DNA from: a bacterium
Lineage (GTDB): Bacteria > Bdellovibrionota_C > UBA2361 > RFPC01
Direction of reading: 5' to 3'
Assembly: GCA_009926305.1 (NCBI GenBank)
Contig: RFPC01000002.1
Span: forward strand, 1,932-65,931
DNA: 64,000 bases
How positions within the stretch are numbered: position 1 is the stretch's first letter; each line of letters begins with the position of its first letter. The notes beneath the pieces are model-generated. The model was not told where the DNA came from, did not search any database, and saw only the letters and a program-made list of their open reading frames with translations. Position numbers and translations under genes: made by a program. Of this stretch, positions 8,407 through 51,090 are shown piece after piece.

Positions 8407-9132
8407 CTACTGAAGTGTTTTTAATTTTTCCCGAGCATCTTTCGCTTCGGGTGATGCTGGAAACTGGGCTATGAGCTTCTGGAGGGTTAATCGTGCTGTA
8501 TTCATATCTCGCATTCGAATCAAAACCGAGGCTTGCCGAAAAAGTGCTAGAGGTGCCCGATCGTGCGATGCAAATTCATTCGCGAGAGAAAGATACGACG
8601 AGAGCGCCTGAGGATTGTTTGCGATCCCCTCATGACATACCGCCACCCAGAAAAGCGCCCTAGCGCGGATATCAGGGAGTAAATCACTAGTAACAAGGGA
8701 TTGTAATCCTGGAAGTGCTAGTTGATAGTTTCCAGTGCGTATTCGAGTCAGCTCGTTCATGAAAACACGGGCCAATTCAGGCTCTAGTGAGGAAACAAAT
8801 ATCTCATCAGCCTCAAGGGCAATGAGAGGGACGAGTGCTGGAGGTGGCATCCTTCTTTGAAGGCGAGATAAATCTGCCTTAAGAGTATTAACATCACCAC
8901 TGAATCTTTGTGCTTGAGAGAACTCGACTTCTTCTATTCTCCCTGAGATTCTTCTCGAGCGGTCCTCCAGAGCATCAACTCTCGCAACAATCTCTGCTTG
9001 TACGCCTCGCATGTCATCGAGTCCATTTTCAATTCTGTCGATACGACCCAAGAATTGTCCAGGGAAAGAACAACCAGTGGTAAAGTTCTGAAGCGCTAAG
9101 AGGCAAACGAGCAAATATAGAGATAATCTCAT
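8407..9132 (-). CDS. Tol-Pal system protein CpoB/YbgF-like lipoprotein (coiled-coil plus helical repeat)
   Basis: Signal peptide with Cys lipobox (TTGCSF). N-terminal coiled-coil then a helical repeat C-terminus. Sits immediately downstream of pal, as cpoB does in Tol-Pal clusters. Confidence 0.5.
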   Translation of the reverse strand: MRLSLYLLVCLLALQNFTTGCSFPGQFLGRIDRIENGLDDMRGVQAEIVARVDALEDRSRRISGRIEEVEFSQAQRFSGDVNTLKADLSRLQRRMPPPALVPLIALEADEIFVSSLEPELARVFMNELTRIRTGNYQLALPGLQSLVTSDLLPDIRARALFWVAVCHEGIANNPQALSSYLSLANEFASHDRAPLALFRQASVLIRMRDMNTARLTLQKLIAQFPASPEAKDAREKLKTLQ

Positions 9133-9314
9133 AGTGGTCTACAGTCTAAAGGAAGAAGATGAATAAACACAACGCACAGATTGCCTTCGCGAGAACAAAA
9201 TACGGCGACTAGCCAAGGTCGAACACCGCCCAGCTAGACGCCGTTATTGCTGTCTCACTACACCGAGAAAAATCCCAGCTAGCTACCAAACAAGTCAAAT
9301 CTCAAAGAGCAGAA

Positions 9315-9758
9315 CTATTTTTCCACCCGGAAATGCACTCTGCGGTTTTGAGACCATGCAGACTCGTTATGACCCGGAGCAAGTGGCTGGTCTTCCCCAT
9401 AACTCACCATGCTCATACGATCGCTCTCAATCCCTAAGCCTCGAAGATAGTCGTAAGCAGACTGAGCACGACGTTGACCCAACGCGAGGTTGTATTCCCG
9501 TGTCCCACGCTCATCACAGTGACCTTCAAGGGTAACGTCTACGCCAGAGTGGCTCTTCAGCCATTTCGCGCTATTCTTTAAGCTCTCCTTAGCCTCACTC
9601 GTAAGATCAGACTTATCGAAGGCAAAATGAACATCTTTCAACACCCTACCTGCTTCGGCATAAGGAACGTTTCCTATTGAACGCGGCCTAGTGGTACAGG
9701 TACATGCGGAAATAAAAAATACACTCGCAGCAAGTACTATTAATCTGACTGATTTCAT
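9315..9758 (-). CDS. pal: peptidoglycan-associated lipoprotein Pal (OmpA-like domain)
   Basis: Lipoprotein signal MKSVRLIVLAASVFFISAC. OmpA-family C-terminal domain (HCDERGTREYNLALGQRRAQSAYDYL...). The long ORF extends to 9797; the lipoprotein-type start is the Met at about 9758. Confidence 0.85.
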   Translation of the reverse strand: MKSVRLIVLAASVFFISACTCTTRPRSIGNVPYAEAGRVLKDVHFAFDKSDLTSEAKESLKNSAKWLKSHSGVDVTLEGHCDERGTREYNLALGQRRAQSAYDYLRGLGIESDRMSMVSYGEDQPLAPGHNESAWSQNRRVHFRVEK

Positions 9759-18112: not shown

Positions 18113-18565
18113 CTACGGGCACCCGTCGCCATCAACTGCCAAGCGAACAATCACCCCATCACAGAACCGTTCCCACGTGAGATATTTCTTGCCCTGACAA
18201 TGATTGATTTGCATAAAACCCATTGAATCATTTGGGTTGGCGCAGGCCCCATCAAATCGAACTTGAAATTTTGTGAGTCGAGGTAGTCGAAATCCTGGCA
18301 AAAGACTTGAGGCAACTGGATTGGTCATCTCTCCAGCTGTCGTTTGAGCGATAAGACCGAAACTTGCCGGCAGATTATCCGGATCCACAATTCCCGCTTC
18401 AAAGGAGGTTTGAGCATCTTGCAGAGCAGTCTCAATTACAGCAAAGGTTGCCGAATTTTTGTAAATGGCATAGCTGCTCAAAGCAAGGCTAGCAAGAACA
18501 CCAATAATCGCGATGATGGTGAGAAGCTCTATGAGGGTGAATCCTGAATCCATTCTTCCTTTCAT
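18113..18565 (-). CDS. type IV pilin / pseudopilin (prepilin-type N-terminal methylation domain)
   Basis: Leader MKGRMDSG followed by the cleavage motif G|FTLIELLTIIAIIGVLASLA. C-terminal Cys pair consistent with a D-region disulfide. The long ORF starts 15 codons upstream. Confidence 0.85.
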   Translation of the reverse strand: MKGRMDSGFTLIELLTIIAIIGVLASLALSSYAIYKNSATFAVIETALQDAQTSFEAGIVDPDNLPASFGLIAQTTAGEMTNPVASSLLPGFRLPRLTKFQVRFDGACANPNDSMGFMQINHCQGKKYLTWERFCDGVIVRLAVDGDGCP

Positions 18566-18794
18566 TTGCCTAACTCCTATCGGTAAAACGCACATAAAGC
18601 CCCAATTCAATCGTTACAGAGCTTCGAGATTCCCCGTAATCGGTATGACAGAAAATGTCGCTGCCACGACAAAAGTTGTCTATTCTGGCTGTCCACTCTT
18701 CAGTAAGACACCGAAACGTTTCACAAAAACAACACTCTCTTCACTCTGGGAATACCTGCTGCATAGACTGTTCCAAAATTAGCAATATCATCGG

Positions 18795-20086: not shown

Positions 20087-22024
20087 TTACGTCCCTTCTT
20101 TCTCCTTGTCTAACTCCCGAGCAAGCAAAATATCTTTGGGAGATTCACTGAGGATCTGTACCCCAAGCAGCCGTTTGTCTCCCTTGGAATTCGGATAAAA
20201 TGGTTTATCGATATATCCTTTGACATTGAGGCCACGGTAAGGATTTTCTGCAGGACAAGGAATTTTAAGGGATTGATTGGCGCCCGCTGGAAGCAGTTGC
20301 TCCAAATGACCACCCTCAGTAGAGAGCGATACCCGTTGAGCTGCGGAAGTGATGTTACGGATCTGAATGGATGCTTGACGTTGAGAGGTGCCCTCCTCAT
20401 CATTACAGAGTATCCAGGTGCTGAAGGCTCGTTGAGTCCACCTATAGGTATGGCCTGACACCGGATCTTTCTCCCACTGATAGAGTCCCATTTCGCCCTG
20501 TAAGGTAGAAACATAGAGCGCCGGACTGAACGCAAGAACAACAAAAATAGCCAATAGGTACGAGGAGCGGTGAACTGAGATCAGGCGAATAATGAGAGAT
20601 AAAAATAGAGCGCACAGCAACATCACTTCTTGAAAGAGGTAGTGGGGTCCGATGAACAGAATGACAGCAAAGGAAGCAAAAGCTGCTAAGCCTACTCGGA
20701 ACGCGCGCTTTTTCGTATGAAGACCTTCTTGTAATCCAATTTTTGAATAGAGCAGCATAAGGGTCATCACGAGAAGCCCCAGGAGGCCATACTCTGCTAA
20801 AAAACCGATATAGGCATTATTTGGATTATCAGTCCAGAAGCCGATATCAATACCGAGATAATCGGACAAACTAGTTACATACCCTGAAAATTGTAGGGGA
20901 CCGACTCCTGAGACGGGAAAACGTGAAAATGCCTCTACTCCTAACGAGGCAAACTGCAGTCGATTTTCAACAAGAGTTAAATCTCCCCTCAATAAGGCTG
21001 AGACGGTCTCTCGTACCCGAACGAGTGATTGAAAATTATCCAAGCCCAAGACAAGGAGTCCACAGAGACTTATGCCTATCAGAATCACTAATACACTTCT
21101 TCCATTATGTTGCTTCCTAATAGAGTAAGCGGTTAAGGCCCCATACAGGGCAAAAAAGACAAGAATATAGAGGAGAAATGTGCGGCTGCCCGACAGGAGT
21201 CCTCCGAGAATTGCTAAGATCATTCCACACAGAACAAGACGAGGGCGCTCGTTATAAACATCCTGTTCTTTCCCGATGTGCAATAAGAGAAATATAAAAA
21301 AAACGGCAGAGAAAATACCAAACGCGTTCGGATCGGTGAAAGTTCCGACACTCCGATTGAGAGAATCCCATAGCGGAGTTTGCCGGGGAAATTGGAGGTG
21401 AATTTGCTCTATTAGCGGAAGCTTTCGAGTCAATGCTTGTATGATTGAAAAAAGAAGTCCAAGCGTCCCACCCCACAATATCCCTCTTACAGAAGCAATT
21501 TGTGCAGACTTCTCCTCTGAGCATAACTTAAAGAATGCAAATGCAGAGAACAGGAGCGCAGCAAAACCAAGTTGAGATAATACCTGGATACCGAGAAACG
21601 GAACAGATTGCGAGGCATTTATCGACCATTGAAGATTGGGAAATTCATGCACAAGAGTAAATCCGCCATATAGAATAAGATAGAGAAGTATGGGGAATCC
21701 AAAATGAGGGAAGGTCTCTTTGTTTTTACAAATGACTCCCCCGAATATAAGGAGACTCAAAATTGAAACAATATCTACTCCTAATACCGGCGCAATTGGA
21801 AATATACATCCAAAGAAGAAAAGTGACCTTTCAAGAAGAGAACGTTTAGAAAGCCATTTCTTTTCGCCTATTGCGGCAAAAAACACACTGATGAAAAGAC
21901 AAAAAAGAGGCAAAACAGGAAAGGATTCAAGTAGTGTAACGTCATGATACAGACGAATGGCGCTCGTTGAGAAAAGGAGGAGAAGAAAGCTCAACAGAGC
22001 CAGGGTCATAAGAAAAGGGCGCAT
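20087..22024 (-). CDS. polytopic membrane protein with O-antigen ligase/polymerase-like (Wzy_C) domain plus a C-terminal periplasmic domain
   Basis: More than 10 TM segments. 'NAYIGFLAEYGLLGL' and 'SGSRTFLL' resemble Wzy_C motifs. About 130-aa soluble C-terminal domain. 645 aa. Confidence 0.5.
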   Translation of the reverse strand: MRPFLMTLALLSFLLLLFSTSAIRLYHDVTLLESFPVLPLFCLFISVFFAAIGEKKWLSKRSLLERSLFFFGCIFPIAPVLGVDIVSILSLLIFGGVICKNKETFPHFGFPILLYLILYGGFTLVHEFPNLQWSINASQSVPFLGIQVLSQLGFAALLFSAFAFFKLCSEEKSAQIASVRGILWGGTLGLLFSIIQALTRKLPLIEQIHLQFPRQTPLWDSLNRSVGTFTDPNAFGIFSAVFFIFLLLHIGKEQDVYNERPRLVLCGMILAILGGLLSGSRTFLLYILVFFALYGALTAYSIRKQHNGRSVLVILIGISLCGLLVLGLDNFQSLVRVRETVSALLRGDLTLVENRLQFASLGVEAFSRFPVSGVGPLQFSGYVTSLSDYLGIDIGFWTDNPNNAYIGFLAEYGLLGLLVMTLMLLYSKIGLQEGLHTKKRAFRVGLAAFASFAVILFIGPHYLFQEVMLLCALFLSLIIRLISVHRSSYLLAIFVVLAFSPALYVSTLQGEMGLYQWEKDPVSGHTYRWTQRAFSTWILCNDEEGTSQRQASIQIRNITSAAQRVSLSTEGGHLEQLLPAGANQSLKIPCPAENPYRGLNVKGYIDKPFYPNSKGDKRLLGVQILSESPKDILLARELDKEKEGT

Positions 22025-22681: not shown

Positions 22682-23608
22682 CTATTTACCTTTTCTGTTC
22701 TTTCGGTCTACCTTACTTGCTTTGACCTCATGCTGAAAAGCCGACAAATCCCCTTGTCCATCTGGCACAAACAGCATCACCTCGTTCTTCGAGACAATCT
22801 CACTCTGAGAAAGGGCATTATCCTCTATGACGGTCCGTATTTGATTCCAGTTTTTCTCGAAATTTTCACCAATCAGGATACCAAATGGACCAAGCTCACC
22901 CCGATAGAGCCCTGATTTTAAGGCACCAACAATAAGAGGCTCTTTATCAGCGGAAGGGTAGACAGGTTGATCAAGAATATGTGAACCATGAAAAACTCTG
23001 GATGTTCCCCCCTCTGGGGTAGTGGTTACTGAGTGCACTACTACCCTCTGGCCCTGAAAAACGCCTAGCGTCAGTAGCATCCATTCCTTGGGAGGAACGA
23101 CTATATCTGAAAAAAGAAATTTACCTCCTTGTCCTCGAATATCTCCCCAGAATAGTGCAGGTCGGTCCACCTCACCTCTTCGGATTATTCCAAAAGAGTA
23201 CCCGCTCACAAACTCCAGATGCGCTTTTAGTTTGGCAACGAATATAGAGTTGTCGCCTTCTTTCAGTAGCCCCCGGGGTCGAATCCAAACAAATAACCCG
23301 AAATCTTCACCACGAGCTGGTTCTAGGTCAGGTGAATGATTCAGCGAGATAAAATCTCCACCTGTGCGAACCCGGAATGTTTTCGGAAATCGCCTTTCTG
23401 ATTCCTCGTCAGCTTCATCATGAGTGGCTTGCTCAATAACTGGGGAACTATGGATGGGTCCAGAAAAGAAACTACTCGCTTGAAAGACGATGACGGCGGC
23501 TAAGAGAAAAGCACCGAAGAATAGAGTAATTCGAAGAAGAAATATTTTAACAGGAGACACCCTATCCCTCTCAAAGTGTATGAATAAAAATCGAGCGTTC
23601 GATATCAA
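22682..23608 (-). CDS. membrane-anchored protein with a LamG/concanavalin-like jelly-roll domain (putative)
   Basis: N-terminal TM. 'DFGLFVWIRPRGL...NSIFVAK...GYSFGI' resembles a LamG pattern. 308 aa. Confidence 0.35.
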   Translation of the reverse strand: MISNARFLFIHFERDRVSPVKIFLLRITLFFGAFLLAAVIVFQASSFFSGPIHSSPVIEQATHDEADEESERRFPKTFRVRTGGDFISLNHSPDLEPARGEDFGLFVWIRPRGLLKEGDNSIFVAKLKAHLEFVSGYSFGIIRRGEVDRPALFWGDIRGQGGKFLFSDIVVPPKEWMLLTLGVFQGQRVVVHSVTTTPEGGTSRVFHGSHILDQPVYPSADKEPLIVGALKSGLYRGELGPFGILIGENFEKNWNQIRTVIEDNALSQSEIVSKNEVMLFVPDGQGDLSAFQHEVKASKVDRKNRKGK

Positions 23609-30388: not shown

Positions 30389-32314
30389 CTAACGACGTTT
30401 TCCTGCACTGTTCGATGAATATATAGGGAGATGATCGGCAATTTTTGCAATGACGACTTTTCCGATCCTCTCGTCGAAGAAAAAGTGGACTCGAATCTGA
30501 TTCCCTGGCTGATTTCCAAACTTCACATGAGCTTCCGCACATATTGGTTCTCCCTGATAGCTTACAACTCGATGGTTCATCAGCTCACCTCGGGCCTTGG
30601 TCTCTTTCGACTCGGTCATGTTCACCTCGAAGCCAGTTTCAGCTTTGTATCGCTTTGGCTCAAAATTTCCCTCTTCAAACTTCATTTCGAAGAGTCTTGT
30701 CGCCATAGCTTCAAGGAGTTGATTTGCTCTCTTCTGAGCTCCTTTCTTAGAAAGGCATCCTTTTTCAACCATCTCTTCAGCACCGGCGTACGCATCCGGA
30801 TGAATCACCATATTCTCAGAATAGCTCGCTTCCAGGTAGTCGAGAATCTGAAGTAAATTCATCTGCTCTTTTAACGGTTCAAGAATTTTTAAAAGGACCG
30901 TTACTCGCTCTTGCTCTTCTTGTGCTTTAATCTCGAATTGATTTCTATGATGTACCAATTCTCGGGTCGTCGTTTCTAACTCTGTCTCATGCTTCGCTAT
31001 GAGTTCAGCCTTCTCTTGCTTAGTAACACTGTCATAGATGTTCAGCTCCTCCTCTAAACTAGCATTAGCGCTGCGAAGTCTGTTTAACTCTTCCCTCTGC
31101 GCCATATTTTCAGCTTGGAGCTCCGAGAGAGTCGCATTTGTTTGCTTCAGCAGTGCCTCATACCGCTCGGAATCCCTTTGCTCGACACTCAACTCTCGAA
31201 GCTCTTTTGTTTGTCGATTGATGAGCTTTATATTTTCCTCGGATTTTCTAGTATTTTCGAGTAAATCAATATCCTGAATAGTTGCAACGGACAGAGGTGA
31301 ATTGTCTTGAAAAGCCATTCCATTGATTGAACACCGCAGGGCCGAAAGATGGATATCAGAACCTACAAATGGTTGATGCACTAGCTCATTCGTTGATATT
31401 CGAAATTTTCTCATCTCTGAGTCTGCGGACCGCTGCGGATAATACAGTTGAGCAAAGCCCTGAAATGGAATGTCTTCCGACGTCAAACTATGATTGGGAA
31501 GGTAGCCTAATACATCTTGAATCTGCCTCGAGTCCTCTAGTCCATAGACAACTGCAACTCCTCCCAGCGACCTCGCCATTGCTCGCATATCAATCGGATA
31601 TGCGCTATCACCTGCAGGACCATGTATTTTTGCAACGGCCACCGCGAGCAGCTTTCGATCAGGATCACTCATTGCTTTCAAAAACGTATCGGCATTTCTG
31701 CCGTCGATTCGTTGAGGAAGATAACTTACTGGTGCACTGCCAGAAGAGACTCTCCATCTGGTATCGCTGATGATCCGCTGAACAATTCCGGGGGTACTCA
31801 ATGGTGTCGGGTGTATCGCCCCATGGAAATCAGGCGAAACCATCTGTTCATTAAGCAACTTAACCTTAAAGTCCTTTTCACCAACCTGAGATATCCCTAC
31901 ACTCGTCTCCCAAAATCGCGGGTTGAAGTGAAGATCACGCTGAATAAGCCTCATTGCCCAGTGAGTCGGTGTAGGCCCTGCAGCATGCAAGGCAAAAGAG
32001 CGAGTCTCCAATGAAGTATCGAGATAGGCAGAATCTATGGTGTGTCCTGTAATGAAATTCTCGAGAGTTATACCTGCTTCCTGGTTGCCTAATTTTCTCA
32101 GCACCCATTGAAAGACCTCATTATGTAACTCGGCAGGTTCAGCGTCACCCAAATGCACCGTGAGTTCAGTCGCAAAGTTTGGGCGTCGACCGATACCAAG
32201 CCCTCGATCAGAGCCATTAGAGGTCTGAAAGGATTCTCGAAAATGTCTCGGCAATTCGCCTTCAGCACTCAGCTGCTGGCACCAAGCTCGCGATTGCTCA
32301 ATGTTACTGCTCAT
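30389..32314 (-). CDS. large hypothetical multidomain protein (N-domain about 330 aa, about 140-aa coiled-coil, C-domain about 170 aa)
   Basis: 641-aa intact ORF. The central region (about residues 340-480) is heptad-rich (LINRQTKELRELSVEQRD...LNRLRSANASLEEELN). The C-domain contains 'RGELMNH' (Rx5H, HEPN-like) and 'IRVHFFFDERIGKVVIAKIADH'. No family assignable by eye. Confidence 0.5.
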   Translation of the reverse strand: MSSNIEQSRAWCQQLSAEGELPRHFRESFQTSNGSDRGLGIGRRPNFATELTVHLGDAEPAELHNEVFQWVLRKLGNQEAGITLENFITGHTIDSAYLDTSLETRSFALHAAGPTPTHWAMRLIQRDLHFNPRFWETSVGISQVGEKDFKVKLLNEQMVSPDFHGAIHPTPLSTPGIVQRIISDTRWRVSSGSAPVSYLPQRIDGRNADTFLKAMSDPDRKLLAVAVAKIHGPAGDSAYPIDMRAMARSLGGVAVVYGLEDSRQIQDVLGYLPNHSLTSEDIPFQGFAQLYYPQRSADSEMRKFRISTNELVHQPFVGSDIHLSALRCSINGMAFQDNSPLSVATIQDIDLLENTRKSEENIKLINRQTKELRELSVEQRDSERYEALLKQTNATLSELQAENMAQREELNRLRSANASLEEELNIYDSVTKQEKAELIAKHETELETTTRELVHHRNQFEIKAQEEQERVTVLLKILEPLKEQMNLLQILDYLEASYSENMVIHPDAYAGAEEMVEKGCLSKKGAQKRANQLLEAMATRLFEMKFEEGNFEPKRYKAETGFEVNMTESKETKARGELMNHRVVSYQGEPICAEAHVKFGNQPGNQIRVHFFFDERIGKVVIAKIADHLPIYSSNSAGKRR

Positions 32315-34821: not shown

Positions 34822-36429
34822 ATGGGTACGGCTCCACACGAACATCCAGTAACAACGGGCGCACGGCTCAGGTCAATAATCTTCTCTGAACAGTGTGACG
34901 GTGAAATCGCGAAGGATCTTCTAGCCTATACCGAAAAGAGTCATGCCAGCTCCCTTAGCCCCCAAAACCTCGCTCAGGTGTTCTATGCGTTGGGAAATCT
35001 AGCTCGCAAAACCCCAGATGTGGAGCGATTATTCCATGTAAATCCAAATAAGGAACGACTGCGTTCCCTTACCAGTATTGCTCGACGTCAACTCGACTCC
35101 TTCGAGGCAAGGAACATATCAGAGACCTTATTTGGGCTTATCGGATTAGGGCAACGTTCTGGACCCTTAGTTACCTCATTAGTCGGAAGAGCTGGCGGCG
35201 AAGTTGAAAACTTTGACTTACCGACGCTGGTTCATTGTCTTGGAAGCTTATGCTCACTCAATGTAGAAGAGCGTTTCCAAATGCATTTTGCTCTGCCCGC
35301 TTTTGAACGATTAGAGAGAGATTCTGATAGCCTGACCGATACTGATTTGGCTCGTGGATTACTTTATGCCTCTAAATTACTGCTCGATACTCAAGTAACA
35401 GCCCTTGAAGAAAAATGTCTCGAGAGAATTACGAAGTTTACCTCCTTCGAACTCGGCATTCTTCACGGTGCGAGTAAAATCTCTGGCTCTGAGTTTAGTC
35501 AAGATATCCTTGAAGAAGTAACTCGGAGACTCCAACATCAACCAGAAGAACTCAAGAGCAAGCAAATATTTGAATTCATGACTCACCAACTTCGTGCTGG
35601 CTTAGCGCATGATGGATTTATAGAAGGGCTCATACCGGAAATATCGAATCGGCTTGATGGATGGTCTTGCTCCGAATGTATAGACGCACTTCACTATCTT
35701 GCATATTTTAATGCGCGGGAAGAAACATTACAGAACCAGCTGGGAGATAGGATAGCTCTCGAGATTGATTCTCTTACGTGGCATGAACGAGCGATAACGA
35801 CTTGGTCCTTTGCTCGTCTCAACATACCCCATCAACCCCTGCTTACAGCCATAGAAGAACGAATAGGTGAGCTCCAGTCCAAAATATGTTCTCCACAAGA
35901 TCTTGCCACCTTAGCTTGGAGCTATGCATTATTAGAAAAGGATAATGCAAAAGAAATTGTCAACACTATTTCCTCAATCTTCGAAACTGAAGCATCAGGA
36001 CCACAAGAACAGCGACAAATGTATCATGCAAAAGTTGCCTTGGGACTATCGTCACCTGGAAGCTATGCTAAGCCCATTCAAGAATTAGCTGAACAGGAGA
36101 TTCGAGCGCACAAAAAGAATGGTTTTGAACGAGAAGTACTGAGTCACTTAAAAAACTTTGAGCCGGCAATCAAGCTTTACACTGAAACGATCATAGAAGG
36201 ACTCTGTCCAGATTTTGTTATCTTCGCTGACAATCGGAAAATTATATTGGAGACAGATGGCGTACGCTATCACCATCTATCAGACGGGACTCCAAAGGGT
36301 AATGATATACTTCAGGATACCATTATGAAACGAGCAGGGTACGAGGTGCGACATGTGACTGATCAAGAATGGTATGCTTTGAATAATCGAGAGAAGGAAG
36401 CTTTTCTCAGAGATCTTCTCTCTCTCTAG
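34822..36429 (+). CDS. protein with FASTK-like helical repeats and C-terminal RAP/DUF559 (Vsr-like PD-(D/E)XK fold) domain
   Basis: Repeated about 35-aa helical units (LAQVFYALGNL, ISETLFGLIGL, LPTLVHCLGSL, LARGLLYASKL, CIDALHYLAYF, ITTWSFARLN, LATLAWSYALLE). The C-terminus 'PDFVIFADNRKIILETDGVRYHH...RAGYEVRHVTDQEWYALNNREKEAFLRDLL' matches the RAP/DUF559 pattern (ExDG..H ... GW.V..V...EW). 535 aa. Confidence 0.55.
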   Translation: MGTAPHEHPVTTGARLRSIIFSEQCDGEIAKDLLAYTEKSHASSLSPQNLAQVFYALGNLARKTPDVERLFHVNPNKERLRSLTSIARRQLDSFEARNISETLFGLIGLGQRSGPLVTSLVGRAGGEVENFDLPTLVHCLGSLCSLNVEERFQMHFALPAFERLERDSDSLTDTDLARGLLYASKLLLDTQVTALEEKCLERITKFTSFELGILHGASKISGSEFSQDILEEVTRRLQHQPEELKSKQIFEFMTHQLRAGLAHDGFIEGLIPEISNRLDGWSCSECIDALHYLAYFNAREETLQNQLGDRIALEIDSLTWHERAITTWSFARLNIPHQPLLTAIEERIGELQSKICSPQDLATLAWSYALLEKDNAKEIVNTISSIFETEASGPQEQRQMYHAKVALGLSSPGSYAKPIQELAEQEIRAHKKNGFEREVLSHLKNFEPAIKLYTETIIEGLCPDFVIFADNRKIILETDGVRYHHLSDGTPKGNDILQDTIMKRAGYEVRHVTDQEWYALNNREKEAFLRDLLSL

Positions 36430-37778: not shown

Positions 37779-38348
37779 CTATATCGTCAAAGCAGGTATA
37801 AGAAATAGATACACAACTGAGGCAACCGCAGAAAGAATACCGCACAGGAATGAAAGATATGCCAACCGTACATAGCGCAACTTTTCCTTTGCCAAATATT
37901 GACCTAAATCGTAGATCTCTCTTACCTGCACGCGATAAGCAAGCGCGTGGTCTTTCAGAACTCCTTCCCACGCTCTTTCAAACTCTTCATACGGTATGTT
38001 TATAAAGTTTCCAAAAAACAAAGAGCGCATAGCATCAAACGGCACTTCATGACTGAGACGTGTCGTCGTCTTACCAAATTTTTTGGGCATTACAGCGTAA
38101 ACCGCGAACAAAACGGTAAACACTCCAGAGATAATAAGAGAAATGGCTATCATCTCAAGCTCTGGCTTTAGAAGCAGTGGTGCGCTCAGAGTAATAATCA
38201 GAGAGCTAATAGTTATCAGCATATTGGCCTTCGTATCAATCATCATACTAATTTGTTGATGATGAAGACGCGTCTGGCGAATAAGATGATCGAAGTGTGA
38301 TCCAGGTTCTTTTACCTCAAACTGACGCATTGCTTCAGAGCCCTCCAT
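37779..38348 (-). CDS. small 2-TM membrane protein, possibly Pycsar-effector-like (DUF5706)
   Basis: 189 aa. N-terminal cytoplasmic helical region with 'DTKANMLITISSLIITL' leading into TM1, and a second TM at the C-terminus. The family call is from memory of the motif and is weak. Confidence 0.3.
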   Translation of the reverse strand: MEGSEAMRQFEVKEPGSHFDHLIRQTRLHHQQISMMIDTKANMLITISSLIITLSAPLLLKPELEMIAISLIISGVFTVLFAVYAVMPKKFGKTTTRLSHEVPFDAMRSLFFGNFINIPYEEFERAWEGVLKDHALAYRVQVREIYDLGQYLAKEKLRYVRLAYLSFLCGILSAVASVVYLFLIPALTI

Positions 38349-43677: not shown

Positions 43678-44184
43678 TCAGACAGCCGGCGGTATTTCTC
43701 CATACAGTTTTACCTTGGTGCCTTTTTTAATCTGGAGTTTTTTAGCCTCACCTCCTAGAACCTCGATAACATACTGGCTCATTCCAGGAACACTACGTTG
43801 CTCTTCGGAAAAAGGGGTAGCATTTTCAACAACACCGAGGACCTCCCAATCTGCTGATACGAATATCATGTCGAGAGGAATATATGTATTCTTCATCCAG
43901 AAAGAATTTTGCCGAGCAGAAGGAAAGAGAAAAATCATTCCCCTTTTCTCTTCTAGACTCTTACGAAACATTAATCCTTTTTCTCTTTGTGATGGCGTAT
44001 TTGCAATTTCGAGATAATATCTCTCTGATTCACTAGTTTCGGAGCTGAAGGTAACGGGCAGTAAGCTGGATTTCTCACGATAGCCAGCATACCAATACAC
44101 ACCACACGCTAGCAGCAGCAAACTGAGAGCTACGACAACGACTTGTGAGTATTGCTGCTTACGCCATTTTTCATTTGAAGGCAT
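43678..44184 (-). CDS. DUF192 family protein
   Basis: Signal anchor plus 'GLMFRKSLEEKRGMIFLF...FWMKNTYIPLDMIF' DUF192 core. 168 aa. Confidence 0.75.
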   Translation of the reverse strand: MPSNEKWRKQQYSQVVVVALSLLLLACGVYWYAGYREKSSLLPVTFSSETSESERYYLEIANTPSQREKGLMFRKSLEEKRGMIFLFPSARQNSFWMKNTYIPLDMIFVSADWEVLGVVENATPFSEEQRSVPGMSQYVIEVLGGEAKKLQIKKGTKVKLYGEIPPAV

Positions 44185-45967: not shown

Positions 45968-46233
45968 AAAAACTCCCTTGTATTGCTAGAAACTTAAGAC
46001 ATTCATCTCACATTTGGAGCCAGTTCTGCCAGACAGGTTTCGCTGGAGAGGTGAAAAAGTTCTTATTTTCAAACTACGTTTGTTTACGGCAATTTTCCCC
46101 TCAGATTTTTGGAAACTTCTTTTTACTGAGAGCGATATGTTGTTTATCGAGAACGAGTCCCCCACAAGGGGGCTGCCCTTCCGTTCGAGAAACACCAATC
46201 GAGATAAAAACCAGCTTTGTGGAGGCAAACCAC

Positions 46234-48795
46234 ATGCGAAATAAGGTACATACCACGATCCACGGCTATTCACTGCTTGAGGTTGCACTCAGTCTACCAA
46301 TCCTCCTTGTTCTCATGATTGGTGCCTATGATGCAAATACCGCTTTTCATGGGTATACCGCGCTACGCGAAGGGGTTGAATCCGCGAACCGATGTACATG
46401 GACAACCGAAGGTGGTTGTACAACCTTCAGTACTTCAGAACCATCACCACCATATTTCAACTGGACAGCATTTGTTCCCTCCATGTCCGAATATTATGGA
46501 TACCAATACCAGTACTACGGAACAGAGTACCATTTGCTTCGTCCCCAATTTGAAGTCGGAAACTATCAAGCGTATTCCTTGGGAACACGAAGCTTTGAGT
46601 ACGCCTCCAACCTCCGCCGATTTGCTCAACTTCGTTTTCCAGCCGAAGGAATCAGACCGCGAATTTTTCAGTCCATCTCCCCTCACCTGAACATAGCCAG
46701 AATTCCGGGAGGACGCCCGCAAGTTTCTGCTACGTACATTGGCGGAGGTGGCAATTATTCAAATAATATTCCCTATACACTGAACGGTTCCCCCTCTCTT
46801 CAGTGGAATGGAGCACGCAACGGGACGGTATCGTTTACCCTCGGAGCTCCTTCTGGTCTCGATGAATGTCGAATCTCTGAAAACTTTGATGGAGCTGGTT
46901 CGCACACTCCCAGTACAGCCGACTGCTCCAGTAGCGCTGCATATCGTCCCAACCGCGGATTTGTCTCCCTTGTGGTATACGGAACAGATGCGAACTCTCA
47001 GACTGGCTCAAGTGGACAGATACAGATGCGCATCTCTGGTCCTGGGTTACAAGGGCAAGTGCCACTCGGTGCAAGGGCGTACGGTTACGGAGATGATGCC
47101 AGTTTCTGCCCCCGTGTTCCAAACCTCCCATCACCTAATGCTCCAGGAAGCTCAAGTTACGTCACCACTGATATCGCCACATGCGCTGAATCGATACCGG
47201 GAACCTATGCTGGATTTCGTAGATTGAGATTTGGTGAGACCTACACGCTACACTTCTCTCTCGTGGGTGTCACCGGCGGAGACCTACAATGGAGTTTTGA
47301 CGGACTCGAACTGTTCCTTCCAAGAATATCAGGAGGATGGAATAACTGGCGAGAATGTGTTGGTGGCATACTCCCCAGCGATTATCACAATAGATCCGGT
47401 TGTACCGTTCCGAATGGAAGATTGGCTCCAGAAGTTCGATGGGTCAATCAGGCTTCTCAGCCGAACAACTCAACAGGCCAACAGTCCGTATTCACTCCGC
47501 CAGGAGCTGATACTCCAGCTGGCGAAGCAGCACATCCACTTGAACACCGATTCTCTGCGTCTGAAAAAGATACCATTACCTCGGCTCCATGTTCAGTCAT
47601 CAGCACGTATCTTCCAAATACTTTTTGTGATGATTGGTATGAGATACCTTCAATCCCTATCTCTGGCATGATGACCCAAGCATGTTCTGAAAATCTTGGA
47701 ACCGCTATACATGAGATAGAGGGAGGTTCACTTGAGGAGATAAATCTGGAACTCGCCTTTACGGAGTGCGGTCCGCCGGAAGAGAGTGTTCAGCTTTACA
47801 CGGTAAGCGTTGGGCCTGAAGAAATTGACTACGAATTACAAACCCACCAATTTTCAAATATCCCCTCAATGATTTGGGAGCCTGCCACTTGCAATGATGC
47901 AGAACCACCCATTCCAGCAGAGGTCCTCCAGTATCCGCATCACTCCTACTCTGAGTCATCTTACGGCTACGGCCCACCATTTCACCTAGCCCCAACAATC
48001 GATCCTCGGATCATGATTACAACTCCCGCGTATTCATGCTCTCGTTCGGGAATTCCGTACACCGTTGCCACCGTCTTGTACGACGAACACACAACCTCTC
48101 AGAATTTTTTTCAAGAACTTCACTTTGAGCATGAGGTCGGTTGTGCTGAAGACGAATGGGGGCTGACCGTTAGAGCCAATGCGATAGATGCAGGGATGAA
48201 TCCTCTCGCGTTTATGGAGGCGGGAAAGCTGACCCCAACATTTTCCGTCGGCAGCTCGGTTCAGGGAATTAAAGCGGCAGTCAGTGAGAGTATTTTTAAT
48301 CAATATGCGACTGCAGAGTGTGAAATGGAGATGGTACCGGGTCAGCCCCTACAGCCAGTTGGCTCCCTAGAAGGCTCCTGCCAGAATCCGCTGCACACTC
48401 AACCAGCAACCCTTTGTGAAAATAGCGATGTGGTCTGCATAAGAGAGCTTGCCGGCTTTTGCGGAGCTCAGGGAGATGGTGTATCTCCCTCTGTATCACT
48501 CCTTGAGGCAGAGGCCCAACAACATTTCTTCAGCACACTAAAGCAGATTTATCCGGCGGCTCAATTCGGATGCACGGGGAGTAATTGCGCACAATTCGGA
48601 GCGCCGCAGGGCTATGACCCTAACAATCCCGGGACTCTCTCTCAGTGGGAAGGCACTCTTCAAGTCCCACTTCTTTCTGCAAGGCTCTTGAATTTTTTAA
48701 TCCCTGAAGAGCATGACCTTTTCGGTGCCGGACGGCTTTCTTTCTCTTTGGGAGCAAAAAATGCACGGCGATTTGAAAGAGACTTAATAGACTGA
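46234..48795 (+). CDS. large secreted/pilus-associated protein with TadE-like N-terminal domain (TadG-like?), Cys/Gly/Ser/Thr/Pro/Tyr-rich
   Basis: 'HGYSLLEVALSLPILLVLMIGAYD' TadE-like N-terminal TM. About 850 aa, no other recognisable domain, many Cys. The ORF is open from 46051; Met at 46234 precedes the TM. Confidence 0.5.
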   Translation: MRNKVHTTIHGYSLLEVALSLPILLVLMIGAYDANTAFHGYTALREGVESANRCTWTTEGGCTTFSTSEPSPPYFNWTAFVPSMSEYYGYQYQYYGTEYHLLRPQFEVGNYQAYSLGTRSFEYASNLRRFAQLRFPAEGIRPRIFQSISPHLNIARIPGGRPQVSATYIGGGGNYSNNIPYTLNGSPSLQWNGARNGTVSFTLGAPSGLDECRISENFDGAGSHTPSTADCSSSAAYRPNRGFVSLVVYGTDANSQTGSSGQIQMRISGPGLQGQVPLGARAYGYGDDASFCPRVPNLPSPNAPGSSSYVTTDIATCAESIPGTYAGFRRLRFGETYTLHFSLVGVTGGDLQWSFDGLELFLPRISGGWNNWRECVGGILPSDYHNRSGCTVPNGRLAPEVRWVNQASQPNNSTGQQSVFTPPGADTPAGEAAHPLEHRFSASEKDTITSAPCSVISTYLPNTFCDDWYEIPSIPISGMMTQACSENLGTAIHEIEGGSLEEINLELAFTECGPPEESVQLYTVSVGPEEIDYELQTHQFSNIPSMIWEPATCNDAEPPIPAEVLQYPHHSYSESSYGYGPPFHLAPTIDPRIMITTPAYSCSRSGIPYTVATVLYDEHTTSQNFFQELHFEHEVGCAEDEWGLTVRANAIDAGMNPLAFMEAGKLTPTFSVGSSVQGIKAAVSESIFNQYATAECEMEMVPGQPLQPVGSLEGSCQNPLHTQPATLCENSDVVCIRELAGFCGAQGDGVSPSVSLLEAEAQQHFFSTLKQIYPAAQFGCTGSNCAQFGAPQGYDPNNPGTLSQWEGTLQVPLLSARLLNFLIPEEHDLFGAGRLSFSLGAKNARRFERDLID

Positions 48796-48883: not shown

Positions 48884-50839
48884 CTACGTTACCAGAAAAC
48901 GTGTAATGTGAAATGCGGCATAGGCAGCGCCGTAAGCCAAAAGCGACATGTAGACAAACTGAAAAATTGGCCAGCGATATGAATTCGTTTCCTTTGCCGT
49001 CATCGCCTGTGTCGGCAAACACTGCATCGCTAAAACAAAAAAGACAAGGAGGCTAATAGCAGTTGGCAGGTTAAATAGGGGACTCCCGTCTTGCCTCTTC
49101 ATGGAGCGCAGTGAAGAAATCAATCCTTCAGAGTCATCACTCTCTTCATTACCGATACCACTCATTACGGCAAGTGAAGATACGACAACTTCACGGGCAG
49201 CAAAGGACGTAAGAACTCCAACACTGATTCTCCAATCAAAACCAAGTGGTTCAAACACTGGCTCTATTCCCTTCCCTATTCTTCCTACATAAGAATACTC
49301 AAGCTCAGCTTGCTCAGTCCTTGGACCAGAATAATCTTCGGGAAGTTGTGGGAAGCTGGCAAGGCACCAGAGCACCAGAGAGATCGTTAAAATAATCGTT
49401 CCTGCTTGTCGTAAAAAAATCATCCCACGGTCAAATGCAAGCTTTGCGGCATCTCGCATGCTCGGCATCCGATATGGCGGCAACTCAATGGCAAGAGCTG
49501 TGGGCTTACCGGGCAGTATGGAGCACTGTAGGAGAAGTGACATACTCACTGCCGCCAGCGCACCAAGAGCATATCCACCGACAAACACGCTCGCTCCTCC
49601 AAGTGGATTACCGGCAAAAACCAGAGTTGCAATCATCAGATATACGGGCAACCGAGCTGAGCAAGTTAGCAGGGGTAAAATCAGAATCGTTCTCAACCTG
49701 TCTCGCTTATTCTCGATGAGGCGGGTAGACATAATCGCTGGAACGGCGCAGGCATGGGCGGCCAACATCGGAACGAACGCTTGTCCTGGAAGCCCAAATC
49801 TCCGCATAAGCTTATCCATCACAACGACTGCTCGAGAAAGATAGCCAGAATCTTCTAAAAGAGCGATTCCGAAAAAGAGCATACAAATCTGCGGAAGAAA
49901 AATGACTACGCCCCCAATGCCAGCAATTACTCCATCTGCAATGAAACTGCCTAAAAGACCTGTAGGAAATTGAATCTGTACCTGCTCAACAAGTAGTCCA
50001 ATCATGGAATCTATCAAATCCATTGGATACACTGCGAGACTAAAGACCGAGAAAAACAAACCCGCCATGACAAGAAAAAATATGGGGAGACCAAGAAATG
50101 GGGCGGTTACTATCTTATCAAGCGCATCTGAACGTCTTGAGACTGATGCATGAAGATTCGGGACGGCTCTATCAACAACTGCATCAGCCCATCTACAGCG
50201 AGCGGTAACACGACACCCTGTGCATGATGAACAATGCGCGAGCGCAGGAGGGGCGCCCTCTAGCGACTTGCTGTCCTCTCCTAGAGCTCTCTCCACAACA
50301 TCTACGAGCGCATCAATTCCTGTTCCGCGCCTCGCTGAAACTGGTACCACTTGTACTCCCAGCTCTTCTGATAAGACATCAAGATTAATTTCAATTCGCT
50401 TACGGCGTGCCTCATCAATCATATTAAGCGCGACAACAACAGGAATGTCCTGATTACGAAGCTCTCCAGCTAAGGGCAAGTGATGTGGCAACCGAGTGGC
50501 ATCAAGTACAATCACCATCAGATCAGGCTTCGCTAATCTGGGATTTTCTCCGAGAATAGCCGAACGAGCTACGACTTGATCAAGACTCTCTCCCTCTAGC
50601 CCGTAGAGCCCTGGAAGATCTATTAATTCAAGAGGACCAGAAAGGAGCTCCAATCGAGCCCGACGGACTTCGACAGTTGTCCCTGGAAAGTTTGCGGTAT
50701 GACCCCTGAGCCCTGTGAGGCGATTAAAAAGTGATGTCTTTCCAGCATTGGGTTGCCCAGCCAACACTACAGTTTTCGGACGCAGTGGGGCAGACACATG
50801 AGGCGGATCATCAGGGAGAATATCAAGCAATGCGCTCAC
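48884..50839 (-). CDS. feoB: ferrous iron transporter B
   Basis: 'GQPNAGKTSLFNRLTG...ANFPGTTVE' G-domain and polytopic C-terminal permease. 651 aa. Confidence 0.95.
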   Translation of the reverse strand: MSALLDILPDDPPHVSAPLRPKTVVLAGQPNAGKTSLFNRLTGLRGHTANFPGTTVEVRRARLELLSGPLELIDLPGLYGLEGESLDQVVARSAILGENPRLAKPDLMVIVLDATRLPHHLPLAGELRNQDIPVVVALNMIDEARRKRIEINLDVLSEELGVQVVPVSARRGTGIDALVDVVERALGEDSKSLEGAPPALAHCSSCTGCRVTARCRWADAVVDRAVPNLHASVSRRSDALDKIVTAPFLGLPIFFLVMAGLFFSVFSLAVYPMDLIDSMIGLLVEQVQIQFPTGLLGSFIADGVIAGIGGVVIFLPQICMLFFGIALLEDSGYLSRAVVVMDKLMRRFGLPGQAFVPMLAAHACAVPAIMSTRLIENKRDRLRTILILPLLTCSARLPVYLMIATLVFAGNPLGGASVFVGGYALGALAAVSMSLLLQCSILPGKPTALAIELPPYRMPSMRDAAKLAFDRGMIFLRQAGTIILTISLVLWCLASFPQLPEDYSGPRTEQAELEYSYVGRIGKGIEPVFEPLGFDWRISVGVLTSFAAREVVVSSLAVMSGIGNEESDDSEGLISSLRSMKRQDGSPLFNLPTAISLLVFFVLAMQCLPTQAMTAKETNSYRWPIFQFVYMSLLAYGAAYAAFHITRFLVT

Positions 50840-51090
50840 TGGCGTATCTCCTCTTCACGCACGATATAGATCTTTGCGGCCAACCGTTCGTCGATCGCAA
50901 TCCTTGCACCAGCAGTTGATATGATACACCCATGACCTTTTCGCATCAGCGTAATTCTTCTTCCCGGTGTTAATCCGAGCCGTAAGAGTCTTCCATTATC
51001 TTCTGGTTCCACTTCAAGTGTATCCACCACCCCTTCTTGACCGGGTGAAAGTTCAAGTAAACTGCAAGCAAGATGACACTGATCAGACAT
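50836..51090 (-). CDS. feoA: ferrous iron transport protein A
   Basis: 84-aa SH3-like FeoA (LSPGQEGVVDTLE...GLTPGRRITLMRKG). 4-nt overlap with feoB. Confidence 0.8.
   Translation of the reverse strand: MSDQCHLACSLLELSPGQEGVVDTLEVEPEDNGRLLRLGLTPGRRITLMRKGHGCIISTAGARIAIDERLAAKIYIVREEEIRQ

Follow-up and report, generated by a model that had tools for sequence, protein, structure and literature searches.

The 64,000-nucleotide stretch of contig RFPC01000002.1 analysed here, referred to as the window, is occupied by housekeeping genes, including those for Tol-Pal, glycolysis, ribosomal proteins, an H+-PPase, methylmalonyl-CoA mutase, a carboxyltransferase, FeoAB, a helicase and mismatch repair. 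Among them, on the forward strand, lies a gene for an 853-aa protein with an N-terminus like that of a TadE-type pilin (Table 1). The original prediction for this gene, made from its sequence, described a Cys-rich secreted protein with a TadE/TadG-type pseudopilin anchor and no recognizable domain, and suggested that it might serve a Flp-type pilus, with genes elsewhere, as an adhesin or tip protein. We found that the gene at 46234-48795(+) is real. Its product is one of an undescribed family of TadE-class pilin-like proteins, each about 800 aa long and encoded by a solitary gene, in which a Cys scaffold is conserved and no known domain is present. The interpretation that we favor, with a little better than even confidence, is that the protein is a giant minor pilin that is processed by a prepilin peptidase and sits at the tip of a filament, most likely of the Tad/Flp type, whose genes lie elsewhere.

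The open frame on the + strand spans 46051-48795 and is therefore 61 codons longer than the gene read from the ATG at 46234. The ENA and NCBI gene calls both gave the identical 853-aa product from this ATG, for which the NCBI product name was only 'pilus assembly protein [bacterium]'. The homologues at loci L001, L004, L005 and L017 carry in-frame stops a few codons 5' of their short leaders; the 61-codon extension (46051-46233) is thus accidental and not conserved. As the extension was not kept in the homologues and a Shine-Dalgarno sequence, GGAGG, precedes the ATG, we rejected a start at 46051 and retained the predicted start at 46234. We assign a negligible probability to the idea that the start was mis-set, with a GTG at 46051 placing 70 residues ahead of the hydrophobic segment, or that the open frame is not a real gene. 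The frame does reach 46051, but the stops in the homologues and the position of the GGAGG oppose a start there, a longer product would still contain the hydrophobic segment, and 168 homologous clusters share the same architecture.

The sole strongly hydrophobic stretch of the protein lies at about residues 8-35 (19-residue windows starting at residues 8-17). Its context is that of a prepilin substrate: a short basic leader up to Gly(-1), a Glu at +5 and a hydrophobic alpha-1N segment (MRNKVHTTIHG/YSLLEV, with the slash marking the predicted cleavage site). A Sec-type signal peptide was considered and rejected on reading the sequence, since there is a Glu within the hydrophobic core and no AXA site. 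Pfam gave a single match, to TadE (PF07811), in which residues 11-49 aligned with profile positions 1-39 of 43 at E=0.016 and 15.8 bits, below the cutoff of 22.9 bits. In the same search neither vWA nor PF13400 was matched, and PF07963 (N_methyl) was not matched at E<=1; a search of NCBIfam gave no match. The PROSITE type IV pilin pattern PS00409, which consists of [KRHEQSTAG]-G-[FYLIVM]-[ST]-[LT]-[LIVP]-E followed by 14 hydrophobic residues, fits the first seven positions (HGYSLLE, present at the N-terminus) and fails as a full pattern at Pro22 because of this Pro in the hydrophobic stretch. PilY1/PilC-type tip adhesins, which are not pilins themselves, have a Sec signal and a C-terminal beta-propeller (PF05567); Pfam gave no match of this kind, and the N-terminus of the protein is pilin-like. 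Apart from the sub-threshold TadE match, the Pfam and NCBIfam searches bear out the earlier statement that the protein has no recognizable vWA or other domain. The description of the protein as a poorly characterised TadG-like pseudopilin is no more than an analogy, since it has neither PF13400, which marks TadG, nor the vWA domain that many TadG proteins carry.

When 1.84 billion cluster representatives were searched with a profile, 168 clusters fell into the family at the cut-off of E<=1e-3, of which 99 also passed E<=1e-10. With few exceptions the members are 750-880 aa long, and the match begins at the N-terminus and often extends over the whole length. Word-indexed searches gave five close homologues (37-100% identity), and the same five proteins and no others were found when a 117-sequence alignment was used. 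NCBI labels the records of these close relatives as Bdellovibrionales or Bdellovibrionota metagenome-assembled genomes (MAGs); the named members from the profile search come from Bdellovibrionales MAGs and one 'Ca. Dadabacteria' MAG, all metagenome-derived, and the names annotated for family members are 'pilus assembly protein' or 'hypothetical protein'. When the N-terminal signature was counted in the 95 full-length members with a recognizable N-terminus, Glu(+5) was present in all 95 and Gly(-1) in 81. Position +1 was mostly Y or F, +2 was S or T, +3 and +4 were L, and -2 was often R or K, residues that we take to resemble the type IVa consensus GFTLIE; the median leader length was 12 aa. 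This class III signal signature is kept even though identity between family members has fallen to 17-25%. In a Pfam scan of 60 members at E<=0.1, TadE was matched in 54 (best E=8.6e-11) and PF13400 weakly in seven (best E=1e-4); N_methyl and vWA were matched in none of the 60, and no domain other than TadE and PF13400 appeared. Precomputed TadE matches exist for two members, P0008 and P0048. From the TadE matches and the N-terminal signature across members we concluded that the N-terminus belongs to the TadE class at the family level; the TadE/pseudopilin-type N-terminus originally proposed is thus far better supported for the family than for the protein itself, in which the match is sub-threshold.

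The residues around the predicted cleavage site also raise the alternative that the protein is a tip or minor subunit of a type IVa pilus, or of a pseudopilus like that of a type II secretion system, recruited through a PilD-type cleavage site. The sequence [YF][ST]LLE at +1 to +5 mimics the type IVa consensus, the window also contains a type IVa pilin gene, and sharing of the peptidase does occur: Bdellovibrio bacteriovorus has no TadV in its Tad system, and its Tad pilins are processed by PilD, the type IVa peptidase (bioRxiv 10.64898/2026.07.08.737194). Against this, Pfam assigned TadE or Tad to the family members and never N_methyl, and PS00409 fails at the Pro in the hydrophobic stretch. 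The LP and GAxD motifs at the N-terminus also point away from a type IVa subunit, as we take both to be of the PF07811 TadE type. We consider this alternative quite unlikely and, because of the Pfam TadE assignment, favor a Tad filament over a type IVa pilus.

To model the protein we used AlphaFold2 (AF2). With 90 family sequences, the model had a mean predicted local distance difference test (pLDDT) score of 87.2 and a predicted template modeling (pTM) score of 0.45, compared to a pLDDT of 32 with the five close homologues only. The model contained a continuous 45-residue helix (pLDDT 81-97) that starts with YSLLE, including Glu(+5), runs on through a hydrophobic stretch of TadE type, LEVALSLPILLVLMIGAYD, becomes amphipathic and includes R53-C54. 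This long N-terminal alpha-1 helix was packed on a beta-sheet in the predicted model, and the body after the helix was mostly beta, with a few helices close to the C-terminus. Low-confidence linkers near residues 61-70, 301-310, 421-440, 511-530, 671-680 and 741-750 suggest that the modeled ectodomain may consist of five to six modules. A fold search of the PDB with this model revealed no significant resemblance; the matches, weak and about 200 aa in length, were to modules of the jelly-roll and lectin types and to those of phage tail tips or fibres, which is in keeping with a tip protein. Searches of PDB sequences with two profiles likewise gave only chance-level matches (CurF and expansin, with E of at least 1).

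Directly after the helix the family carries the motif ALxEGVxxxLRCxYxTDGxC. E16, D33, R53 and C54 were conserved in at least 96% of 90 members, and across all three family alignments R53 and R294 were invariant and E16 and D33 near-invariant; in the 90-sequence alignment N487, G489 and E848 were conserved at 90% or more. The 853-aa protein has 22 Cys and not the approximately 30 first reported, and to call it unusually Cys-rich was an overstatement, since 2.6% Cys is about twice the window median and not extreme. Between 16 and 18 Cys are conserved in the family as sequence-adjacent pairs (54/62, 212/231, 375/390, 484/512, 553/602, 637/696, 728/735 and 780/785), with the extra pairs 292/317 and 716/743 in the subclade of the 853-aa protein. 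The Cys count per family protein is mostly even, and paired, mostly even Cys fit an oxidised extracytoplasmic protein.

The conserved residues of the ectodomain other than Cys also bear on a different proposal, namely that the protein is a secreted or surface enzyme or toxin exported by its class III signal, comparable to the archaeal bindosome sugar-binding proteins, and has no structural role in a pilus. R294, E319, N487, G489 and E848 vary little or not at all and could be residues of an active site, and the low Lys content, 0.7% relative to a window median of 4.2%, is as in some protease-exposed secreted proteins. Structural roles explain the conserved residues equally well, however, the Pfam and NCBIfam scans and the sequence and fold searches of the PDB all failed to reveal an enzymatic domain, and to our knowledge there is no bacterial precedent for an enzyme or toxin exported by a class III signal. 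We judge this proposal to be very improbable. The Lys content itself, 6 of 853 residues, is the lowest among 50 window proteins, but Arg is normal at 4.3%; the depletion is common to the closest homologues (0.2-1.0% Lys) but not to the whole family, in which Lys reaches 10%.

As had been stated for its surroundings, no tad/pil assembly genes (flp, tadV, rcpCA, tadZABC or tadEF) accompany the gene, either in the 64-kb window or at 11 related loci, and none of the small open reading frames adjoining the family gene in the window and at other loci has a pilin-like N-terminus. The window does, however, contain one type IVa pilin gene, 28 kb away. The gene is divergent from an etfB-etfA-DUF192 unit, and in most relatives the family gene is followed by a two-gene DEAD/DSHCT helicase, directly so in L001, L009 and L017; in the window, FeoB and FeoA (48884-51090, -) are inserted between the gene and the helicase pair. 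The etfBA-DUF192/helicase arrangement persists in L009, L010 and L017, even though the L017 member is detectable only by profile. The DUF192 gene is syntenic with the family gene in 10 loci, and in L012, where the electron transfer flavoprotein (ETF) genes have been lost, DUF192 (9113-9622, -) is still the divergent neighbor. Loci L013-L016 have a different neighborhood, likewise without pilus genes. DUF192 genes have been described inside Tad operons of the Firmicutes Bulleidia and Helcococcus (PMC12786226), and it is possible that the DUF192 protein is a functional partner of the pilin-like protein; this link is weak, as the association of the two genes is mostly due to shared ancestry of gene order. 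Membrane glycosyl- or acyl-transferase genes occur directly 3' of the family gene at L003 (5134-6579, -; GT-C/PMT-like, as judged from the sequence), L013 (12445-14673, -; PMT) and L011 (4572-5978, -; MBOAT), which hints that the ectodomain may be modified by such enzymes.

The gene has diverged much faster than its neighbors. Relative to L001, the pilin-like proteins are 39% identical, whereas ETF-beta, ETF-alpha and the DSHCT helicase are 81%, 73% and 76% identical; at L017, the family protein was undetectable by tblastn, whereas ETF-beta was 63% identical. The gene looks vertically inherited and core to the lineage. Its position among housekeeping genes, in synteny with etfBA-DUF192 and the DSHCT helicase and never beside pilus genes, together with its appearance as a vertically inherited core gene, would suit a protein that stays out of filaments and is bitopic in the inner membrane, with a large domain in the periplasm. 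In that case the TadE-like segment, processed or not, would be a signal anchor only, and the body with its disulfides would have a function in the envelope, such as that of a scaffold or sensor, perhaps jointly with the DUF192 protein. Disulfides suit the periplasm as well as the cell surface, and TadG of Aggregatibacter has been described as membrane-associated. A simple anchor does not explain the invariant Glu(+5), the conserved Gly(-1) and the short basic leader, however, the 45-residue helix is a hallmark of pilins, and such fast divergence would be unusual for a core periplasmic scaffold. We regard an envelope anchor as the main rival explanation, though a distinctly less likely one.

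The combination of Glu(+5), Gly(-1) after a short basic leader, the TadE-type alpha-1N segment and the 45-residue helix argues for a type IV filament subunit rather than a plain anchor, as an invariant Glu at the start of the membrane helix is expected of a filament subunit. Fast divergence relative to neighboring genes is as expected of an exposed recognition protein, and such divergence with the Cys scaffold unchanged would suit a recognition surface that is exposed. We propose that the protein enters the inner membrane via its hydrophobic alpha-1N segment and that a prepilin peptidase would then cut after Gly11, removing the 11-residue leader. As there is a type IVa pilin gene in the window, such a peptidase should exist in the organism, and because Y-S-L-L-E (+1 to +5) resembles a type IVa site, it is perhaps a shared enzyme of the PilD type. 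The ectodomain of about 800 residues would fold in the periplasm with about 11 disulfides as staples, and the alpha-1 helix and Glu(+5) would take the protein into the priming complex of a type IV filament, most likely of the Tad/Flp type. We place it there because a body of about 85 kDa is far too bulky for the filament shaft; the body would end at the pilus tip, where the fast-evolving ectodomain may bind a surface, a prey cell or a host cell.

Several observations weigh against placing the protein at a pilus tip. The TadE match in the 853-aa protein itself lies under the Pfam threshold, and neither an assembly gene, a major Flp pilin nor a TadE/TadF-like partner adjoins the gene in the window or at the 11 loci. 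Known tip pilins usually come as trios, whereas the family gene is solitary, and no Tad system was seen in the 64 kb of contig examined. An 85-kDa disulfide-locked body would need passage through a secretin. Finally, the conserved place among housekeeping genes fits a core envelope protein equally well. The original suggestion, an adhesin or tip role in a Flp-type pilus with genes elsewhere, remains the best reading and has published precedents, but the machinery was not seen at these loci and no binding domain was found in the protein.

These precedents are close functional analogues, and they show that large tip pilins with genes apart from the assembly machinery are an already known kind of protein. 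In the Kil system of Myxococcus xanthus, KilL, KilM and KilN (TadE-, TadF- and TadG-like) make up the 'Tips' of a Tad pilus. The large pilin among them is KilN, for the distal domain of which the PDB holds no homologue; many disulfides are predicted in the tips, and of four Kil tip clusters three sit away from the assembly machinery (PMC12075869). The protein described here resembles the KilN/TadG-like pilins in having a prepilin-type leader and alpha-1N helix, a beta-rich region, a large domain without a PDB homologue and many predicted intramolecular disulfides, and, like some Kil tip clusters, its gene lies away from the machinery. The variable exposed domain of KilN has been proposed to function in target recognition, and we propose the same for the ectodomain here. 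In contrast to KilN, which adjoins its TadE/F-like partners KilL and KilM, the gene is solitary; its family is restricted to Bdellovibrio-like MAGs and has a uniform length of about 800 aa, and beyond the N-terminus the two are likened by description.

In B. bacteriovorus a lone tadG tip gene lies away from the tad loci, and its depletion impairs prey invasion (bioRxiv 10.64898/2026.07.08.737194). This gene (Bd0148 of strain HD100, in the file Bd0114_115_148.pdb) and ours share the same broad phylum and a location away from tad loci. Chain A of the Bd0114/0115/0148 model, which may represent any of the three genes, starts with QIALFVALIFQILFL and has neither a Glu(+5) nor an LP motif, and comparison of 15 N-terminal and 18 internal residues of this chain revealed no family motif. 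The neighborhoods also differ, as Bd0148 has motAB (Bd0144/Bd0145) nearby whereas the gene described here adjoins ETF genes, and we treat the two as analogues.

TadE and TadF are small proteins (about 150-200 aa) encoded inside tad loci. The pilin-like protein shares with them (PF07811) the N-terminal module G/xxxxE and the hydrophobic segment A-L-x-L-P-x-L-L…G-x-x-D, but differs in its length of 853 aa, its solitary gene and the type IVa-like residues at +1 to +4. For characterised systems, processing of TadE and TadF by a prepilin peptidase is credited to Tomich 2006 (as cited). Modular type IV pilins offer a further parallel: Streptococcus sanguinis PilB and PilC, CofB of enterotoxigenic Escherichia coli (ETEC) and Thermus ComZ are examples, and the concept predicts many such proteins with extra modules lacking database signatures (PMC8179133). 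Like them, the protein carries a bulky extra module on a pilin module and would be expected at the tip, for binding; modular pilins have an N_methyl module (IPR012902) and mostly recognizable effector domains (vWA, lectin), whereas here the N-terminus is TadE-type and no known domain follows.

The long 5' region that had been pointed out does exist, but it is simply the 266-bp divergent intergenic spacer common to etfB and the pilin-like gene. It gave no match in Rfam, and promoter and terminator scans of the locus found nothing. The only block conserved in the intergenic regions of the window and L001-L005 is the bipartite element GGAAAC-N16-CGATA, a candidate promoter, which occurs once per orthologue, upstream of the gene and on its strand, with a variable sequence between the halves. 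More distant members of the family lack it in their 5' regions. In its -10 half and its spacing the element resembles sigma-28/FliA promoters; the -35 half deviates. In B. bacteriovorus, promoters of the sigma-28/FliA type drive attack-phase genes, for which the consensus is TTAAG-N16-CCGATA (PMC3627812).

Tip minor pilins decide what a pilus binds, and in predatory bacteria they are emerging as a device for prey recognition and invasion. If the protein is a tip pilin, it would offer a way to study how an uncultured lineage selects its host or prey, and the 'lone tadG' and 'modular pilin' concepts would then apply to subunits of the TadE class as well. If it stays out of filaments, the TadE module would have been reused as an anchor for envelope proteins. 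A usable structure model now exists (pLDDT 87). A bolder and rather doubtful proposal is that the family is a hitherto unrecognized, lineage-wide class of solitary giant pilins with a new disulfide-stapled multi-domain fold, which would serve as the main, rapidly diversifying target-recognition device at the pilus tip of this uncultured Bdellovibrio-like branch, acting without dedicated TadE/F partners, perhaps with DUF192, and maybe switched on through a sigma-28-type program like attack-phase genes.

Table 1. Features of the pilin-like gene and of two other genes discussed in the text (positions are those of the window)
Feature	Position	Strand	Basis
Candidate promoter, bipartite element GGAAAC-N16-CGATA	46111..46137	+	Conservation across the six closest loci
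Shine-Dalgarno sequence GGAGG	46221..46225	+	8 nt 5' of ATG 46234; read from the sequence
Coding sequence, giant TadE-type pilin-like protein, 853 aa	46234..48795 (stop included)	+	ENA and NCBI calls, homologues
Predicted class III (prepilin-type) leader MRNKVHTTIHG, last residue Gly(-1)	46234..46266	+	Family signature; cleavage putative
Pilin-like alpha-1 helix, aa 12-56	46267..46401	+	TadE match, AF2 helix, conserved residues
Ectodomain without known domain (about 800 aa); largely beta; contains all Cys but one (21 of 22)	46402..48792	+	AF2, domain searches
DUF192 (PF02643) gene, N-terminal membrane/signal segment, last in the divergent etfB-etfA-DUF192 unit	43678..44184	-	Pfam, synteny
Classical type IVa pilin gene (…MKGRMDSG/FTLIELL…)	18113..18610	-	PF07963 N_methyl, E=5.8e-6

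Some other genes of the window were also noted. The type IVa pilin has 3% Cys and is an orphan, with no other pil genes nearby. About 1.5 kb from it, with lytB between them, lies a gene for a 645-aa Wzy_C/O-antigen-ligase-like membrane protein (20087-22024, -), which could be a pilin glycosylase. Two open reading frames had no Pfam match, one of 641 aa (30389-32314, -) and one of 308 aa (22682-23608, -), the latter adjoining a 2OG-Fe(II) oxygenase gene and the Wzy_C-like gene. A 189-aa homologue of PycTM, a Pycsar effector, is encoded at 37779-38348 (-) with no obvious adjacent cyclase, flanked by genes for a GT87 glycosyltransferase and methylmalonyl-CoA mutase. Finally, the 535-aa product of 34822-36429 (+) matched RAP, FAST_1 and REase_MTES_1575, a FASTK/RAP-like architecture that is typical of eukaryotic organellar RNA-binding proteins and unusual in a bacterium.

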